Below the pieces are notes generated by a model that was given only the letters and a program-made list of their open reading frames with translations, did no database searches and had not been told where the DNA came from. From IMG/VR virus record IMGVR_UViG_3300033074_000984: a stretch of DNA of 64,000 bases; one strand, written 5' to 3'. This DNA comes from a virus. Its lineage: Duplodnaviria; Caudoviricetes. The position numbers were made by a program, and so were the translations under genes. The stretch's first letter is position 1. Every line of letters starts with the position of its first letter. Positions 6,300-51,700 of this stretch are shown here, piece by piece.

Positions 6300-6512
6300 A
6301 TGCGAATGATTTTTGGAGCGCTTCTCGCCGTCGCTTTCGTCACCTCAGCCATGGCCGAGCCGGACGAGATCACTCGTCGCATCGGCTACGAGATGCTCGC
6401 CAAGAAGATGAGTGAGCAGCTGTTGCAAGAGAAGCTCAGCGAGCCGATGCCGCCCGTGCATGTTCAGGCGCCCGGCTACTTCTTGATCGGTCGCGACGTC
6501 CGTATCGGCTAG
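6300..6512 (+). CDS. Small secreted hypothetical protein
   Basis: Signal-peptide-like N-terminus ending AMA. Confidence 0.6.
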   Translation: MRMIFGALLAVAFVTSAMAEPDEITRRIGYEMLAKKMSEQLLQEKLSEPMPPVHVQAPGYFLIGRDVRIG

Positions 6513-6521
6513 GAGGAGACT

Positions 6522-6719
6522 ATGTTCGGGTTCTCTTGGAGAGACATAGAGAGCGACGGCGTCTCTATCGAGTACTGGAACGGCGTGTCGTGGGTGATGT
6601 ACTCTCAGTGCAACGACGTCGCTCAATTCGTTCGAACCCAGATGGAGGCGTGTCAACGCGCGCACCCCATTGCCAGCGTGCGCGCGATAGTCGATGGAAG
6701 AGTCGTTGATAGACTCTAG
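6522..6719 (+). CDS. Hypothetical protein
   Basis: SD AGGAGG. Confidence 0.55.
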   Translation: MFGFSWRDIESDGVSIEYWNGVSWVMYSQCNDVAQFVRTQMEACQRAHPIASVRAIVDGRVVDRL

Positions 6720-20040: not shown

Positions 20041-23000
20041 ATGTGGTCCGACGCCGCAGCTGAACATCCCGTGCTTCCAGACATCAACTCAGCTCCGCGT
20101 CAGTTCTATCCCGGAATGGGCGAAGCCGTGGCCGCGCGTACCATCCTTCGCAAGCGCGCTGACGGCTCTCTAGAGACCTGGGACGACGTCGCATACCGCG
20201 TCGCTGTTGGTAACAGCGCGCTCGCGACGGATCCGAGCCATGCTGCAGTAGAGTTCTCTGACCTCTACAGCCATCTGCGCTCCGGCACGATTCTGATGAG
20301 CGGTCGTCACCTTCAACACGGTGACGAGACGCAGCCTCGCCGTAACCTAGAGGTCTTTACGAACTGCTCTACAGCTGCCACGAGCTTCATGCTGTTCTAT
20401 CTCCTGATGAACGGCTCCGGCGTCGGCAGGAGCTACGACGACTCCCTGATGCTGGTTGACTGGGACAACGCCCCGACCGTGCGCTGCGTTCTCTCTCACG
20501 AACACCCGGACTTCGACTGGAGCGCTCACGAGTCTACTCGAGACGCACTTCATAAGTACGGACCAGCGTCCAAGCGCGTAATGTGGTTCAAGGTTCCGGA
20601 CTCTCGAGAGGGGTGGGCTCAGGCTTTAGAGCTCCTCGAGACGCTCGCGTTCGAGAAGATCCACGTCGGCAAGATGCTCATCTTGGACTTCTCTGACGTG
20701 AGAGGCAAGGGCGCGCCGATTCACGGCATGCAGGGGCGCCCGGCTTCCGGTCCGGTGCCACTCATGAACGCTTTCATAAAGGCCGCTGCTCTGAAGGGCG
20801 CCGGTCTCGAGCGCTGGCGCCAAGCGATGTACGTTGACCACTACTTCGGAGAGTGCGTGCTCGTCGGCGGCGCGCGTCGAGCGGCTCGAATGTCTATGAA
20901 GTTCTGGAAAGACAAGAGCATCATCGACTTCATCCACGTCAAGCGGCCCGTGGAGTTCGACGGCCTGTCACTCGAAGCGGTCATAGAGCTGCGCAAGACG
21001 GAAGACCCCGCGCGCATCCCGTTCCTCTGGTCGTCTAACAACAGCGTTGGCGTAGATGCAGAGTTCTGGAGCCTGCTAGACCTCAAGCGGACCGACAAGG
21101 GGTACGACACCCCGAGCGCTGTTTGGGCGCGTCTTGTATGGCGAGCGCTCACCAAGTGCGCGTACGGAGACGGCACGGGCGAGCCAGGAGTCGTCAACGT
21201 CGACCTCATTGATGGTGACACATCTGGCATCGAGAAGCTCAACGGAGACCCGTGGCTCGGATCTGAGAAGTATCAGGTTCTTGAGGACACCGCCGTGTAC
21301 CTTTCACGGCTCGCCAAGCGCGCCCGAGCTCTCAAGTACCAGTTCATAACCAACCCCTGTTTAACTGGAGATACTTTGATCGCTGTAGCTGACGGTAGAA
21401 ACGCCGTCAGCATCAGACAACTTGCAGAAGAGGGACGAGACGTTCCTGTATACTCGACTAATCCTAGTGATGGACAGGTGCAAATCAAGACTGGACGAAA
21501 TCCCAGAAAAACCGGATATAAGAAAGAGATATGGAAACTTACTCTTGACGATGGGTCTATTCTTCGCGCTACACCGAACCATGAAGTTCTTATGAAAGAT
21601 TTAAGCTATCGAAGACTTCAAGACCTAATACCGGGAGACGCAATTCACCCCTTTAACAGCTTTAACTCAAACGGGTATCGTCAAGTCTGTGGTGTTGGAG
21701 AGCGTATGATGAGGGGCGCTAGACGTAACCGAAGACAGTATCGACTCATTTTTGAGCACTATCATCCAGACGTGTCTGTTGATCCCAAGAGCACGCATAT
21801 TCATCACATTGATCTGGACTCAAAAAATGACAATATAGAGAATCTTCAAATGATGCCCGTCGAAGAGCATAAAAAACTACACGCTAAAAGAATGATGGGA
21901 CACCGTAACCCGTATCACAGCTTTACTACTGAGGAAAAGAAAAGGTTCGCGTCTCATCCAGGATCTAGAAACGGCCGTTGGATAGACGTCTCTAATGAAG
22001 AACTTATCATGGAGGGAAAAAAGCTCTTTGAGCGTTATGGATATATCAACACTCATATATGGAAAAGACATGCAAAAAAGAACGGCCTGCCGCAGACTCT
22101 CGACAACACCGCTAGGTTTACTACGTTTCAAAACTTTGTTAATCAAGTAGCGGATAACCATAAAGTCGTTTCTGTAGAACCAGACGGCGTCGAAGATGTC
22201 TATAACATCACTGTAGACGATAACCATAACTATTACGTCATCACTAGTGCGGAGGATGCGCGTTATATTGTGAGTTCAGGAATCTGCGTAAAGAATTGTG
22301 GCGAGATTCGCATCCATCTGCTCGGTGGGTTCTGCATCATTGCAGACGTCGTTCCGTATCACGCAGCGAGCCTTGAAGACGCTGAGTCGGCTTTCCGTGC
22401 AGCGACGCGCGCTCTGATACGAGTCAACACTATGAAGAGCGTCTATGACAGAGAGGTCAAGAGGACCAATCGCATCGGCGTCGGCATCACCGGCATCCAT
22501 GAGTTTGCGTGGAGGTTCTTCGAGGTCGGCTTCAGAGACCTCATCGACCCAGACTTTGAGTCGCTAGAGCGCTTAGAGAGTGATGATAGCTGGTACGACG
22601 CTACCGGCAACAGAGACCCACGCGTCCGAGCGGCCATGTTCTGGAAGACGCTCGAGCGTTTCAGGCACACTGTGGAAGACGAAGCAGAGCGATACTCTAA
22701 AGCGCTCGGCCTCGTCACGCCGCACACGTCGCTCACCATAAAGCCGGCTGGCACGACCAGCAAGCTCTTTGGTCTCACGGAGGGCTGGCACCTCCCACCA
22801 ATGGCGTTTTATCTCCGTTGGGTTCAGTTCCGTGAAGGCGACCCGCTTGTCGAGCGGTATCGAGCGAGCGGGTACCCCGTGCGCTCGCTCGTGACGTACA
22901 AGAACACCGTCATCGTCGGCTTCCCTACAGCTCCTGCGATCTCAACTCTCGGGATGGGAGACAAGCTCGTATGCGCAGGCGACGCGACGCCCGAAGAGCA

Positions 23001-23343
23001 GTACGAGTGGCTCAGGCTCGGTGAGAAGTACTGGCTCGGTCCAGATCACGGAAACCAGATCTCGTACACGCTCCACTACGATCCCAAGCGAGTAGACTTC
23101 AAGGCGTTCAAGAGGGCTCTGCTCGATAACCAGCGCTCAGTGAGAGCCTGCTCTGTGATGCCTCGAGAGGAGAACGTGTCTCACGAGTACACGCCAGAGG
23201 AGATGATAACAAAGGCCAAGTATGAGGAGCTGTCGTTCGCCATATCGCAGACACTGAACGAAGACGTGGACCGCGCCCACGTCGACTGCTCGACCGGCGC
23301 GTGCCCCATTCACTTCGATAAAGAGGAGGTCGAGGCCGCTTAA
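20041..23343 (+). CDS. nrdJ: Class II (B12-dependent) ribonucleotide reductase, intein-containing
   Basis: NCS, GSGVG.S, DSREGW, ASGP, VGGARR, GEPG, NP[intein]CGE, RIGVG, TIKPAGT, C-terminal CSTGAC. Confidence 0.92.
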   Translation: MWSDAAAEHPVLPDINSAPRQFYPGMGEAVAARTILRKRADGSLETWDDVAYRVAVGNSALATDPSHAAVEFSDLYSHLRSGTILMSGRHLQHGDETQPRRNLEVFTNCSTAATSFMLFYLLMNGSGVGRSYDDSLMLVDWDNAPTVRCVLSHEHPDFDWSAHESTRDALHKYGPASKRVMWFKVPDSREGWAQALELLETLAFEKIHVGKMLILDFSDVRGKGAPIHGMQGRPASGPVPLMNAFIKAAALKGAGLERWRQAMYVDHYFGECVLVGGARRAARMSMKFWKDKSIIDFIHVKRPVEFDGLSLEAVIELRKTEDPARIPFLWSSNNSVGVDAEFWSLLDLKRTDKGYDTPSAVWARLVWRALTKCAYGDGTGEPGVVNVDLIDGDTSGIEKLNGDPWLGSEKYQVLEDTAVYLSRLAKRARALKYQFITNPCLTGDTLIAVADGRNAVSIRQLAEEGRDVPVYSTNPSDGQVQIKTGRNPRKTGYKKEIWKLTLDDGSILRATPNHEVLMKDLSYRRLQDLIPGDAIHPFNSFNSNGYRQVCGVGERMMRGARRNRRQYRLIFEHYHPDVSVDPKSTHIHHIDLDSKNDNIENLQMMPVEEHKKLHAKRMMGHRNPYHSFTTEEKKRFASHPGSRNGRWIDVSNEELIMEGKKLFERYGYINTHIWKRHAKKNGLPQTLDNTARFTTFQNFVNQVADNHKVVSVEPDGVEDVYNITVDDNHNYYVITSAEDARYIVSSGICVKNCGEIRIHLLGGFCIIADVVPYHAASLEDAESAFRAATRALIRVNTMKSVYDREVKRTNRIGVGITGIHEFAWRFFEVGFRDLIDPDFESLERLESDDSWYDATGNRDPRVRAAMFWKTLERFRHTVEDEAERYSKALGLVTPHTSLTIKPAGTTSKLFGLTEGWHLPPMAFYLRWVQFREGDPLVERYRASGYPVRSLVTYKNTVIVGFPTAPAISTLGMGDKLVCAGDATPEEQYEWLRLGEKYWLGPDHGNQISYTLHYDPKRVDFKAFKRALLDNQRSVRACSVMPREENVSHEYTPEEMITKAKYEELSFAISQTLNEDVDRAHVDCSTGACPIHFDKEEVEAA
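21358..22296 (+). mobile_element. Intein (313 aa) with HNH homing endonuclease
   Basis: Starts CLTGDT, block B ATPNH, HHIDLDSKNDNIENL..H (HNH), block F DVYNITV, ends VKN before Cys; AT-rich relative to the flanks. Confidence 0.93.
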
Positions 23344-42637: not shown

Positions 42638-42845
42638 CTCGTTCAAGTTGAAGAGGGGCGACGACGTAACGGTCATCACCGCCTCGCTCAAGAGTCGCTA
42701 TCCCGTGGCTGGAGTCGCTAGACGGCTCCTTCCATGCGGAGCTGTTGACGAGTGGGTGGGTCAGTGGATGCTCAACGGCACCTATCGAACCTACTCAGGC
42801 AGCGTTGCTGGCCTGGACATGATCTTGGAGAAGGAGCAGGCGTGA
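42624..42845 (+). CDS. Single-module paralog C
   Basis: VTV....YPVAGV...WMLNG. Confidence 0.5.
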   Translation: MSPGDSFKLKRGDDVTVITASLKSRYPVAGVARRLLPCGAVDEWVGQWMLNGTYRTYSGSVAGLDMILEKEQA

Positions 42846-43558
42846 AACTAGCACTCATATCAGACACTCACGGTCACCACTGGGGTGGAAGCCGGTTCGA
42901 GCAGGAGCTGATCAACGGCGTCGTCCGCGCTTGCGAGCGAGAGCGCCCAGACGTTCTCATTGACGCCGGCGACTACGAGACGAAGAAGATACACGACGCG
43001 GTCGAGGCTCTCAAGATCCCAGTCATCTCGATCACCGGAAACCACGACTATTACGGGTCAGCGTGGGTTGACAGGGACGAGAGCCTTGAGACGTGCGACG
43101 TGACGATTGGCGGCAAGCGGATCGTCGGCGCCACGCTATGGAGCAACTTCCGTAACGCTGACCCGCTGCTTCTACTTCAAGCAGAGAGCATGCTCAACGA
43201 CTTTCGGTACATCGTTGGCTTCACTCCGTACACAGCGCTTGACTTGCACTACAAGCACCTCGCGTTCTTGCGAAGTCGAGCCGGCGAGGCAGACGTCGTA
43301 GTCACCCACAACGGCCCGACCATGCGCTCTGTTCACGAGCGCTACGGCGACGTGCCAATGAACTACCTCTTCTCCTCACCTCTCGACAACCTCGTTGTTG
43401 AGATGGGAGCGAAGCTGTGGCTTCACGGGCACACCCATGACGATCACGACTACATGGCCGGAGACACTCGCGTGCTGTGTCACCCGTGCGGCTATCCCTA
43501 CGAGCGTCGTCAAAGGGGATTCGTCGGCTACGAGCCGTTGTTCTTGGAGATCGACTAA
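42842..43558 (+). CDS. Calcineurin-like metallophosphoesterase
   Basis: SDTH, AGD, GNHD, GATLW, VTH, HGHTH. Confidence 0.9.
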   Translation: MKLALISDTHGHHWGGSRFEQELINGVVRACERERPDVLIDAGDYETKKIHDAVEALKIPVISITGNHDYYGSAWVDRDESLETCDVTIGGKRIVGATLWSNFRNADPLLLLQAESMLNDFRYIVGFTPYTALDLHYKHLAFLRSRAGEADVVVTHNGPTMRSVHERYGDVPMNYLFSSPLDNLVVEMGAKLWLHGHTHDDHDYMAGDTRVLCHPCGYPYERRQRGFVGYEPLFLEID

Positions 43559-43573
43559 TAAGGCCAATTTCGG

Positions 43574-43602
43574 TTGACTCTCAAACTCGTTTTTGATATA
43601 AG
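43574..43602 (+). promoter_or_regulatory. tmRNA promoter
   Basis: TTGACT-17-TATAAG. Confidence 0.65.
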
Positions 43603-43608
43603 TAGGCG

Positions 43609-44010
43609 TGACGATCGGTGAGGCCGATACGCAATCTCAGAGGACCCGGGGGCAGTACCCGGCGCCTCCACCAAAGCCGTCGATAGAGGAGTAGTCGTCC
43701 TGCCAGGGACGTTACGCCTCGACAAGAGACACCGCGAGTCCGCTGGCACGGACGAACTGCACGTCCTCTCGCATAGAGAGAAGGAGCCGATCGATCGCGG
43801 GTCGGTCCCGGTTAAGCCCGGGTTGGTGTAAAGTGTCTTCGACGACTTTGGCGGGGGCGATGTAGGATCGACTCGAGATGAGGTAGAGGAAGAGGTCGTC
43901 GGGTGACTCCCTGATAGTCCGTAAACTAAGCGCCAACGACAACGACGCACCCGTGATGGCCCTTGCGGCCTGACGCAGCTCGGGGGAGCTGGGCAACAGA
44001 ATCCCCCACC
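43609..44010 (+). ncRNA. ssrA: Circularly permuted (two-piece) tmRNA, tag ANDNDAPVMALAA; ends approximate
   Basis: Acceptor piece ends CCGGG-GGCAGTA-CCCGG-CGCCTCC-ACCA (43673); coding piece starts GGGGGCGATGTAGGATCGAC (43853) giving G3:U70; tag at 43932-43973. Confidence 0.95.
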
Positions 44011-44785
44011 TATTTCTCTAGTGGAGCACATCATGGCTACCGACTTCGTCGTTTGCGGCCGCATCGTAGGCCACTTCTACGCTTGGGACCAGATCGACGC
44101 AGACGTGATCGTCATCATCGGTCTCCAGCCGGTGCAAGAGCTCGGGCTCCCGCCAGGAGACACGTTCTTCGACTTCTATCACGGCACGATCACACAGCGC
44201 GTGATCGGCTCAAGGGATAACAGGGTCCTCGACCTAGTCGACGCTCTTTCTAAGCTGCCACGCGCCTTTCCGACGGACGAGTCGCCGCGCGATCAGAGCT
44301 GACGCTCCTAATGCAGAACACTCCAACCTTTTATGAGATACAGGACGCGCTGTCTTGGGGTCGCGAGCATGCACAACAAGTTGCTCGCCTAATCGCCACT
44401 GCTAACGAAGCTTATCCTCCGACAGGCTTCGATTGCAGCCGTCCTGAGGCGTGGAAGAGTGAGCACTGGAACTGGCTCAGGCTGTGGGGCTACCTTTGAC
44501 AGAGCTCCGTAACAGGAAGATGCAAGATGACTATGAACAACCAAAGTGAGCTCTTATCAGCCGTCGAAGACGGTCGCGCTCTAGTGTGGGAGCCAGCTGA
44601 CTCTGTCGTGATCGACGAGTACGACGGCGCGGACTGGCTCGTCAAGACTAACGGTGACGAGTGGAGAGACGTCTCGTTACGCGTGATGAGATCTTGGCAG
44701 CTTAGACACGAGCTAAGACCAGAAGTCGTTCGCGGTAGACCCATCTGGGTCGCTCGAATCAAAACCCCAAAATAGGAACATCGTC

Positions 44786-48753: not shown

Positions 48754-51700
48754 TCCGTATCCTTGTTGATCTTCTCTTGACCCTTAGCATGGGGGGGAGG
48801 CACGTCTGGCTTCCCTCCCTTTTCTTCTTTGTCTTCCCCGCCACCGCTCTTTTCAGAGCGCACGTGCTCTACCGTGCTCTCGCTCTTCTCCTCGCCACCG
48901 CCCTTAGACGCTTCTGGCGCCTCTCTCGGCTCGTCCTTCTGACGCGGCGCCTGATCCGCCTTCTCTGAGAGCTCGTCTGACGTCGTCGAGTCCTCTGTGC
49001 CCTTTCCAACTCTTCCTGGACTAGAGTCTGCGTCTGGTGCCGGCGGACCCATAGAGCTGAGATCTGCTCCTGTAGCCCTGCCGTCTGAGTCTCTAGCGTC
49101 TCTTACGAGGTCGCCGAGCGGCTTCGGCCTCTTACTTGATTCCGGCTCGGGCGCGTGAGACAGTGGAGAGTCTGGCTCTGCACCAGTGGGCTTGGCGCTT
49201 GGGTCTGCCCAGCGCTGCTCTATCAACGCTCTCTCTCTAATGCGCTGGTCTATTCCCGAGCTGAGCTGGTCAGTGGGTATTCCCCACGCGTTTGCGTATC
49301 GCTTGTCAAGACCGTTCTTCCAGCTCCCCACGATGCCACGAGAGCCGTAGAAGTCGTTGTGCATCATGTCGCCCGCGCCGTAGCCTCGAACAGCTCCACC
49401 GCTGCCCGGAAAGTACATTCCGGGACTCTGCTGACGAGCCAGTGCAGGGTTGTTCTTTCGCAGCCAGAGCTGAACGTCCTGATTGAAGCGCTCGTACATT
49501 CCCCAGTTGCTGCGGCTGCCGGCGTACTTCGCGTGCGCGCCCTCGTGCTCGCCCTGGATGTAGTTCCCGAGTATGTTGTGATGCTCGTCGCGAATGCGAT
49601 AGTCCACAGCGGCGTACTTCGAGTGGCCCGTGCTGCCTGGCCTATAACCAGAGTACGCCTCGGCGCTGTATCCAGGAGGAAGGTACCGACTGGCGTCTCG
49701 ATACGCGTCTAGCATCACCGCTCGTCGCGGGTCTCCTCCAGAGCTGTACTGCGGCGTGGTGGAGAACCTTACGTCTCCACCCGCACCCGTAAAGCGCTGT
49801 CCCCCGGCTCCCCACACAGGGCCTGGACCAGTCATTGCAGGAGCCATGACCGGCTGAGACGTTGACGGCTGAGACGGCATGGGGTGTAGCGACGCGAGCT
49901 GCTGCTGTATCTGCATGTGCCTGGCGTCTAAGAATCGACCGTCACCGCTCGGCGTGCCAGCAAGCGTGCCTGTTCCAGAGCTCTTGTCTGGGTAGTTGTT
50001 CCACCTCACGCCACTAGACTGTATGTTCTCTAGGTTCGCCGACCTAAACGCGCCGAGCGTCGTGACGTCCTTGACCCCCTTGAACGCGTCGTCGCCGAGA
50101 GCACGATTTATCGACTGGGCTCCAAGAGAGAAGCCGTACATCGCGCTCGGTCCAGCGCCACCGGCCGCGCGCTTCTTAGCCTCTTCAACAGCTGCAGCTG
50201 GAGAGGACGCGCCGATCGTTACTGGGTCATAGCCCCTTGCACGAGCGTAGCTCTCAAACGCCTCTTGGTTCCAAGCGCCGTTGAGGCCCTTGAAGCCGTA
50301 CATATCACCGTTTGAGAGACGCGTAGCTCCTGCCCCCGTGTCTCCGACACTCGCAGTGGCGCCCTTCGGCGCACCAGCGCTAGCAGGCACCGGCTGCTTG
50401 AGGGTCGGGCTAGGGCCGGTCTGTACGAACTGACTGGTCTCGTCTCCAGTAGACAGTCGTGGGAGTCGCTTTACTCCCTCTACGTCAGCGGCGTGCGTCC
50501 CGAACGTCTCGGAGCTGTTTATGCTGTCACCCGCAGTTTTACCAACCGCGAAGTCGCCGAATGGGCTACCAGTCCTTCGCGCCAACGCGTTCCTAGCGAC
50601 GCTGCCACTGGCCTGACCGGTAGACGGCATCCCAGTAAACTCTTCTGTCATGTGCGAGCCCTTCATGACCTTTTGGTCAAGAAGCTCGTTAGTCTGCTTC
50701 ACCCACCAAGCTGGCGGGTTGCGTTGGACGTTAAGGCCCTCGTAGTAGCCGCCCTTCACCGTTGACGGCTTGAGGTCTGTCCACAGCCCTTCCCGGTCAT
50801 ACCGCTTCGCGTAGCTCTTACCTGACAGCGCTCGAGCCTGAGCGCGATCGAAGTGCTGCTCAAGCCACATCTGATGGTTCTTTATGCCCTGTCCCCTAAC
50901 CTCGCCCCAGCTCGCCTGAGCGAGCTTCATGCGAAGGTTAGGGTCTTTGATCTGCTCTTCGTATCGACTACGGTCTATGCCACCCTTGAAACCAACGGGC
51001 TCGAATCGTCCCTGGTTCCTCGGGTCCATCGGCGTCTTGGAGAAGTCTGCGGGTGACAGGGTCGCACCGTACCTCTCAAAGCCGCCCTTTCCAGACATCT
51101 TGGGATCGAGCATCGCGCCCGACTTAGAGAAGAAGCCGGTGCCCTGCTCTAGGCCAGACGTGTTCTTCTCGCCGGCTCTCGTTATCGGCGGAGTGAGTTG
51201 CGCCGGCGGAGAGAACGAACCGGACCTGTAGTCGCTCGTCTGTCCGCTAGAAGAGAAGGTCGACGGGCCCGAGCCCATCTTCACTGCATACGGCGTATCA
51301 CTCCACGCGCGCGCTCGCTGCTCTGGGGAGCCCGTGTCGCCGTATCCGGGACCGACCGCACCAGACCCACTAGACGGCCCTGAGCCGTACGAGCCCCTGC
51401 CGCTAGATCCGGGGCCATACGTGTCTGAACCTCCCCCGGGGCCGTATGACGGCGCCCCCTGAGAGTATCCCGGGCCCCAGTCACCGCCGTAACCCTGACC
51501 TCCCCAGCTTGACCCGCCACCAGACGGACCAGGCAGCGCGTTGCTGAGCCGACCAGACCACGACGGAGCTCCAGAGCCGAACGACGACCCGCCACTAAAA
51601 GCTGGTCCTCCACCTATGCCGGATCGTGACGTGAAGCCGCCGCTCGATCCGCCACCTGAGTACGAGGCGTTCTGAAACCCGCCTGACCCGGTGCTAGACC

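Follow-up and report, generated by a model that had tools for sequence, protein, structure and literature searches.

What does a phage keep between the two pieces of a circularly permuted tmRNA gene, in a spacer that is usually treated as discarded, when that spacer is 179 nucleotides (nt) long and appears able to fold into an elaborate structure of its own? The question is raised by a stretch of 64,000 nt of viral DNA ('the window', to which all coordinates refer unless another locus is named), which is taken from the minus strand of an IMG/VR virus record of 161 kb whose completeness is rated at 95%. The phage genome (approximately 58% G+C) displays a T4-like gene content, including a family B DNA polymerase, a DnaB-like helicase, a RecA/UvsX-like protein and a class II ribonucleotide reductase with an intein, to which synteny with annotated relatives adds gp59- and gp32-like genes in the window. 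(The ribonucleotide reductase gene, at 20041-23343, is split by an intein that carries an HNH endonuclease domain.)

Two-piece, circularly permuted tmRNA genes were reportedly described by Keiler, Shapiro and Williams in 2000. In the transcripts of such genes, tRNA-processing enzymes remove the intervening segment (IVS), with RNase P cutting before the first nucleotide (G1) of the coding piece and 3'-end processing occurring after the CCA of the acceptor piece (PMC11915505). An earlier inspection of the letters of the window alone (the 'sequence-only reading') had proposed that the IVS at this locus harbours a selected tertiary fold, built around a pair of kissing loops, and that it is excised as a passenger RNA with a role of its own.

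The tmRNA gene and the borders of its spacer

A circularly permuted, alpha-type tmRNA gene is identified at 43570-44010 on the plus strand by ARAGORN and by Rfam, with scores that exceed the cut-offs of two Rfam models (99.2 bits against a cut-off of 50 for RF01849, and 90 bits against 47 for RF04321). It displays the features of the two-piece alpha-type class: the acceptor piece, which ends in CCA, precedes the coding piece, and both a G3.U70 pair and a tag reading frame are present. The acceptor piece (43610-43673; delimited by RF04321 and RF01849 alignments and by regular-expression extraction) comprises the 3' strand of the tmRNA's own P2 helix, the T arm, the 3' strand of the acceptor stem, the discriminator A and the CCA at 43671-43673. 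The coding piece (43853-44010; read from ARAGORN, Rfam and the sequence) begins with the acceptor 5' strand, G1-G7 (GGGGGCG at 43853), which pairs with CGCCUCC of the acceptor piece and includes G3 of the G3.U70 pair; it also contains the tag frame ANDNDAPVMALAA with its stop codon (43932-43973; the tag ends in ALAA) and a terminal hairpin (43983-44007). Since the CCA lies at 43671-43673 and the coding piece starts at 43853, the segment from 43674 to 43852 is exactly the IVS, 179 nt in length, with the same borders that the sequence-only reading had drawn.

A candidate sigma-70-like promoter of the tmRNA precursor (TTGACT-17 nt-TATAAG, 43574-43602, plus strand) can be read from the sequence, and similar promoters are found upstream of the homologous tmRNA genes of two related phage contigs, L142 (TTGACT-17-TATAGA) and L147. 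A consensus promoter scan of 43300-44300 returned none, TATAAG being unlisted because the second hexamer ends in G. No intrinsic terminator-like site is found inside the spacer. Other contents of the spacer were considered and rejected: a tRNA is ruled out by ARAGORN, there is no ATG on the plus strand from which the spacer could be translated, and an antisense open reading frame (ORF) of 169 amino acids (43555-44064) matches no Pfam family and is not conserved in L142.

In three of three related phages, the gene immediately upstream of the tmRNA encodes a calcineurin-like metallophosphoesterase (42752-43558 in the window; 5001-5717 in L142; 2176-2880 in L147). In a further contig (L143), a related phosphoesterase adjoins an RNA ligase gene, near a class II aminoacyl-tRNA synthetase-like gene (Pfam tRNA-synt_His). 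This neighbourhood may reflect a link to the healing of RNA ends, or it may merely be a conserved gene order.

Architecture of the spacer RNA

The spacer (43674-43852, plus strand) can be described, from its helices and from covariance models and alignments, as a conserved structured RNA with helices P1-P8 and a kissing interaction between loops L2 and L3. Its helices are organized around nested junctions: P1 opens into a three-way junction (P1/P2/P4), P4 leads to a second three-way junction (P4/P3/P5), and P5 leads to a four-way junction (P5/P6/P7/P8). The hairpins and helices quoted in the sequence-only reading are all located where it had put them, and so is the closing helix by which it had the acceptor stem continue into the spacer.

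That closing helix (43671-43683/43839-43851) forms 12 of its 13 pairs, with a single C.A mismatch. Within it, the 5' strand of P1 (43674-43683) forms 10 pairs with 43839-43848 and prolongs the acceptor stem through pairing of CCA with UGG; the 3' strand of P1 is followed by UGGC, opposite ACCA (43839-43852 in all), and the expected RNase P site would fall after 43852, by comparison with other permuted tmRNAs (PMC11915505). The next stretch (43684-43726) consists of the joining nucleotides UA (J1/2), the P2 hairpin and a conserved junction sequence, GACAAG (43721-43726). P2 is built from three stacked segments: P2a (43686-43689/43717-43720), a middle stem GUA/UAC (43691-43693/43713-43715) and P2b (CGTCC/GGACG, 43696-43700/43707-43711; the stem of 'hairpin A' in the sequence-only reading), capped by L2, UGCCAG ('loop A', 43701-43706). 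P4 (AGACAC/GUGUCU) pairs 43727-43732 with 43833-43838. The P3 hairpin (GUCCG/CGGAC, 43738-43753) presents L3, CUGGCA ('loop B', 43743-43748), an exact reverse complement of L2. P5 (UGCAC/GUGUA) pairs 43758-43762 with 43826-43830 and encloses the three hairpins of the four-way junction (43766-43822): P6 (CTCTC/GAGAG, 43766-43770/43776-43780), with a GNRNA-type loop GCAUA; then, after the joining sequence AAGGAG (J6/7, 43781-43786), P7 (CCGATC/GGTCGG, 43787-43792/43800-43805); and finally P8 (CCCGG/CCGGG, 43807-43811/43818-43822).

Considered as a single sequence, the case for this fold is only modestly above chance. The minimum free energy (MFE) of the spacer is -74.4 kcal/mol, with a z-score of -2.4 to -2.5; the interior without the closing stem reaches a z-score of only -1.9 to -2.5, and the minus strand of the spacer one of -3.2. 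Moreover, the MFE fold of the window turns the complementarity of loop A and loop B into an ordinary nested helix, and the window sequence alone does not distinguish the kissing contact from this alternative nested fold.

A diverged homologue and a blind test of the fold

A phosphoesterase relative (45% identical) of the gene at 42752-43558 led to L142, a 94.7-kb Logan contig that is syntenic with the window over the stretch that runs from the phosphoesterase up to gp59 and gp32, the proteins being 38-59% identical. At the corresponding position L142 has its own permuted tmRNA, with the tag ANDNGVPALALAA and an IVS of 180 nt. The two spacers align over their full length and are 58% identical in a structure-guided manual alignment, with conserved blocks at GAUAG, CGACAAG, AGUCnGCU, GACnAACUGCAC, GCAYA, GGAG, GGUGUAA and CUUUGG. 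Many of these nucleotides are unpaired (GAUAG, GACAAG, AACUGCAC, the loop GCAYA, GGAG and GGUGUAA), and conservation between the window and L142 is 67% at unpaired junction positions versus 54% at paired positions.

Because the helices had been proposed from the window alone, L142 could be used to test them blind. When a covariance model (R1) is built from nothing but the window sequence and the proposed helices, it matches L142 at 6343-6522, which is the whole IVS from end to end, with 51.5 bits and an E-value of 2.6e-11 (filters off), whereas a sequence-only model (R2) gives no match at the IVS of L142. Of the pair cells in the model-based alignment, which was fitted to the structure and covers a single pair of sequences, 94.1% hold standard pairs, and both sides differ in 21 of the 51 pairs; none of 500 shuffles reached these values, the shuffles keeping 77% of pairs, and a control in which the 3' partners were slid by one to three columns left 35-46% of positions paired, with zero to four compensatory changes. 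Since that alignment had been fitted to the structure, a structure-blind MAFFT alignment was folded as well, for which RNAalifold recovers P1, P2 and P3 together with versions of P6-P8, and 15 compensatory pairs.

The compensatory changes are distributed over most of the helices. P1 displays three double changes relative to L142. In P2a, two of four pairs are compensatory and lie in register between the invariant GAUA and GACAAG, and the middle stem of P2 covaries in the RNAalifold result on the structure-blind alignment. The counterpart of the P3 stem in L142 is AGUCGGC/GCUGACU. Double changes affect five of the six pairs of P4 in the model-fitted alignment, and three of six in the manual one. 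P6 contains four compensatory pairs out of five, arranged around the conserved loop GCAYA; P7 contains two and P8 contains four. P5, including a G.U pair, is invariant between the window and L142, and conserved AAC and GG..AA nucleotides flank it. The counts of G.U pairs (two in the window and five in L142) fit an RNA of the plus strand.

Taken together, these comparisons support the conclusion that the spacer fold is under selection and has probably been kept across deeply diverged T4-like phages, as the sequence-only reading had surmised. The identity of the spacer to its counterpart in L142 (58%) is not above that of the tmRNA body (61%), which indicates that the module is old and fits vertical descent.

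The kissing loop

The loop-loop contact, for which the sequence-only reading had asked that covariation be sought in homologues, covaries in the one homologue at hand: TGCCAG/CTGGCA in the window becomes TAGCAGAA/TTCTGCTA in L142. The loops of L142 are larger and different in sequence (UCGUAGCAGAAGU and UUCUGCUAG), and they share a perfect complement of 8 nt (UAGCAGAA/UUCUGCUA), compared with the 6 nt of exact complementarity in the window. When the two sets of loops are placed in register, four pairs are kept, two are double changes (G-C to A-U, and C-G to G-C) and two A-U pairs are added. Every other pair of loops, in either RNA, displays at most 3 nt of complementarity, and random loops as large as these would match equally well with a probability of approximately 3e-4 for the window and 2e-4 for L142.

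The homologue also bears on the ambiguity left by the window alone. The P2 and P3 stems of L142 are not mutually complementary, and its MFE fold consists of separate hairpins; thus the extended nested duplex that the window can form is not conserved, and the loop-loop pairing is. In the modelled architecture, P2 (approximately 12 stacked pairs) is as long as P4 and P3 combined, from which we infer that L2 and L3 would be set side by side.

Relatives that carry the same tmRNA without the fold

Two further relatives, L147/L148 and L149, harbour the same tmRNA at the same place with spacers of another kind. In L147 and L148 the spacer (L147:3356-3432) is only 77 nt long and comprises a single A-rich hairpin besides a CCA-anchored closing stem of 12 bp; in L149 it is approximately 95 nt long (L149:2267-2361), with a 12-bp, CCA-anchored closing stem around an unrelated interior. 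By protein identity, these phages are as distant from the window as L142 is: their gp32 proteins are 53-55% identical to that of the window (L147/L148 and L149), the phosphoesterase of L147/L148 is 47% identical, and the identity of the window tmRNA body is 69.5% to L147 and 61% to L142. Since equally close relatives have the same tmRNA without the fold, the fold is not needed for tmRNA maturation, and the idea, raised in the sequence-only reading, of a ribozyme that aids maturation is weakened accordingly. Among the sequences compared, some lineages have lost or replaced the 179/180-nt module, and the spacer interior is exchanged from one lineage to another.

tmRNA spacers as a slot for cargo

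To what extent is such exchange a general property of these spacers? An exact T-arm/acceptor pattern is found in more than 119 viral contigs, and that pattern, together with later scans, yielded a sample of 99 distinct spacers from phage and metagenome contigs. Their lengths range from 8 to 264 nt (median 80), 12 of the 99 are at least 179 nt long, and many contain small ORFs, which does not agree with the premise of the sequence-only reading that the intervening loop is normally short. A closing helix of at least 8 bp, at or beside the CCA, is present in 71% of the 92 spacers of at least 25 nt. The window spacer follows this CCA-anchored closing-stem pattern (P1 of 10 bp plus CCA/UGG), which is a pattern drawn from the sample itself and corresponds to no published family; it likewise follows the rule that the interior is unrelated between related phages, given the different interiors of L147/L148 and L149.

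The majority of AT-rich spacers of approximately 108-264 nt are filled by one small ORF of 26-77 codons that starts 7-20 nt past the CCA (loci L007, L018, L028, L033, L038, L042, L044, L061, L065, L066, L069, L079, L087, L090, L095, L098, L099, L103, L106, L116, L153, L156, L159 and L166). Several of these ORFs form families at the protein level, including membrane peptides of the form MDRxxWIxYL..LPFLVRVQYL and basic peptides of the form MRIKLKT..KWRAGQRKKIKRxYNKRLRR. In the MDRxxWIxYL family, substitutions avoid codon position 2 (eight, one and nine at positions 1, 2 and 3, counted in one pair). Microprotein genes nested within a tmRNA gene appear to be undescribed. Judged from these sequences, the spacer behaves, in all likelihood, as a slot for both RNA and microprotein-gene cargo.

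Other structured spacers were encountered in the same survey. Rhodobacter phage RcRudolph (L002; OP009285.1, region 49133-49468) harbours an unannotated permuted tmRNA, with a GC-rich spacer of 98 nt, underneath a CDS annotated as a hypothetical protein, and a covarying homologue of that spacer (99 nt) is present in L120. Four loci (L154, L157, L169 and L184) share one and the same permuted alpha-type tmRNA, the spacer of which is GC-rich, structured and approximately 106 nt long; one of them, L184, is filed as a contig of a Candidatus Kaiserbacteria metagenome-assembled genome (CPR), which suggests misbinning or a shared mobile element.

Searches for known families and further members

The spacers of the window and of L142 were each compared with Rfam 15, and neither matches a family, the best hits being noise at E-values of at least 0.07 that lie far below gathering scores; the failure of the sequence-only reading to recognise a known family is thus borne out by the scan it had called for. 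Among the small self-cleaving ribozymes (hammerhead, twister, twister-sister, pistol, hatchet, HDV-like and hairpin) there is no Rfam match at E-values up to 10, and riboswitch models, including RF00167 and RF00168, do not match the spacer. Two resemblances noted along the way were also set aside: a hammerhead-like P1/P2/P4 junction, which has no Rfam match and whose CUGA/UCGA bases beside the junction covary as P1 pairs, and a partial likeness to a cobalamin B12 box in L142, seen by eye, which has no Rfam support. The spacer family has no description that we could find in Rfam 15 or in searchable papers. The spacer is single copy in a repeat search of its own 161-kb genome.

The search for further members left the count at two (the window and L142). 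A blastn/megablast search of GenBank phages returned a single match, to the T arm of RcRudolph, a phage with an unrelated 98-nt spacer. Viral, metagenome and genome collections yielded no further member when scanned, with exact and with gapped patterns, for the spacer or the tmRNA body. An anchored pattern (T arm, CCA, 8-12 nt, GATAG) found 35 loci, none of which contains GACAAG, AACTGCAC or GGTGTAA, and model R3, run over 185 loci and 151 sampled Alphaproteobacteria, found no other member. The gene neighbours were followed as well: the phosphoesterase relatives in L143-L146, L186 and L187 have no adjoining tmRNA, the 17 IMG/VR contigs with a related DNA polymerase are fragments that contain no tmRNA, and a neighbouring protein of 66 amino acids has no relatives on record.

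Possible roles of the spacer RNA

The explanation that we prefer, with a confidence that falls somewhat short of even, is that the spacer is a conserved, independently folding RNA domain, carried as cargo in the two-piece tmRNA precursor, and that the released RNA is a functional product that acts on a protein or small ligand by means of its junction nucleotides and kissing-loop scaffold. The precursor would be transcribed from the sigma-70-like promoter; RNase P would then cut before G1 and 3'-end processing would cut after the CCA, as in other permuted tmRNAs; and the freed piece, of approximately 175-180 nt, would have both of its ends locked in P1. It would act alone, most likely binding its protein or ligand partner through the conserved junction nucleotides, and would take no part in tmRNA maturation. 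By analogy with other permuted tmRNAs, an excised passenger RNA is plausible. Against this reading, a heavily structured spacer could equally slow the 3' trimming of the acceptor piece, which would point to a role in cis. A cis-acting element, whose fold works only within the precursor, where it guides the folding or pairing of the tmRNA pieces or times or gates their release, is somewhat unlikely. A protein- or ligand-dependent stabilization of P1 could, for example, decide when RNase P and the 3' enzymes cut. In favour of this reading, P1 stacks coaxially on the acceptor stem and reaches into pairing with the CCA, the layout of two loop-paired hairpins on a junction closed by P1 resembles several aptamer domains, and the conserved junction nucleotides suggest a binding pocket. 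However, equally distant relatives mature this tmRNA from precursors whose spacers are short and fold-free, and the spacer neither matches a riboswitch family nor displays an evident expression platform. It must be considered a long shot that the module is a functional RNA of a new class and governs trans-translation while still inside the precursor (either as a ligand- or protein-sensing switch or as a self-processing RNA, with P1 and the kissing-loop junction timing the release of the tmRNA pieces during infection).

A more sceptical explanation is that the interior is neutral or near-neutral filler, in which only P1 matters, for processing, and the GC-rich interior hairpins persist by descent and under pressure for compactness or nuclease resistance. 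We regard this as improbable. The swapping of the interior for unrelated sequence in relatives, and the z-score of only -1.9 to -2.5 for the interior alone, speak for it; yet 42% of aligned positions have changed with 94% of pairs kept (versus 77% in shuffles and at most 46% when partners are slid), the loop-loop pairing covaries, and the unpaired junction motifs are the most conserved part of the RNA. It is very unlikely that the spacer is a self-cleaving ribozyme of an undescribed class, cutting at one or both borders and thereby releasing the CCA end, G1 or both independently of host enzymes, given that no Rfam ribozyme family matches at E-values up to 10, that the CUGA-like bases by the junction covary as P1 (and hence do not form a hammerhead core), that relatives do without the fold, and that a 2',3'-cyclic phosphate at the CCA would block aminoacylation. 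Such a ribozyme would nevertheless sit exactly where two cuts are needed, and it would account for a complex conserved fold with invariant junction nucleotides; the calcineurin-like phosphoesterase upstream (in the window, L142 and L147) might even be imagined, speculatively, as the healer of its cyclic-phosphate ends. The patchy distribution of the module among relatives could also suggest a small mobile RNA or DNA element (intron-like or MITE-like), either a remnant or active, inserted in the spacer, as the sequence-only reading had entertained. The chances of this appear slimmest of all: the module is present as a single copy in the 161-kb genome, it displays neither a target-site duplication nor a group I or group II core, it is absent from the 185 other loci and the 151 sampled Alphaproteobacteria, and its identity to L142 (58%, versus 61% for the tmRNA body) fits vertical descent.

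Significance and comparison with known systems

The spacer of a two-piece tmRNA is usually treated as discarded, and here a complex fold appears to have been kept in it by selection. The use of the same slot for unrelated RNAs and for small protein genes would turn the tmRNA precursor, strongly expressed and precisely processed, into a delivery vehicle for phage accessory genes. The spacer adds a new structured RNA family, whose tertiary contact can be tested, to the few non-coding RNAs described from phages; and if that RNA binds a host or defence factor, or gates the release of the tmRNA, it could represent a new layer of phage control over the quality control of host translation.

The spacer is like other alpha-type IVS (RF01849/RF04321) in that it lies between the CCA and G1 and its first stem extends the acceptor stem, and alpha-type IVS are absent from the mature tmRNA. 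It is unlike them in its content, since the spacer of the Rfam alpha model covers approximately 30 positions with no modelled structure, compared with 179 nt, nine helices, a kissing loop and conserved junctions in the present case. Purine and lysine riboswitches are organized around a P1 helix, a multi-helix junction and side-by-side hairpins joined by Watson-Crick L2-L3 pairing, with conserved junction nucleotides. The spacer shares with them a closing P1, a multi-helix junction, a hairpin pair joined loop to loop and conserved junction nucleotides; it differs in that it has no Rfam match, contains nested three-, three- and four-way junctions, and has neither an expression platform nor a downstream gene to control.

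Inserts of other kinds have been described in tmRNA genes. An intact tRNA-Ala gene or a repetitive element can occupy the spacer, and these two are the only spacer contents mentioned in the literature that could be reached (PMC11915505). They demonstrate that a second RNA can be accommodated in the spacer and delivered from it; the present insert differs from both in being no tRNA, no repeat and no member of an Rfam family. Group I introns occur in the T-loop of tmRNA genes (PMC11915505), and they, too, are structured RNAs that are inserted in a tmRNA gene and removed from its transcript, as would be the case here. The insertion site is nevertheless the spacer and not the T-loop, the flanks are not ligated, and no group I core is detected.

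The tRNA region of bacteriophage T4 itself gives rise to two small RNAs of unknown role, RNAC and RNAD (PMC3014915). In their case, as in ours, a T4-like phage harbours a small non-coding RNA that is co-transcribed with tRNA-like genes and is presumably released by the same enzymes, a likeness of setting alone; the RNA studied here differs in residing inside a tmRNA gene instead of a tRNA cluster. By that analogy, RNAC and RNAD would be the nearest precedent within this group of phages.
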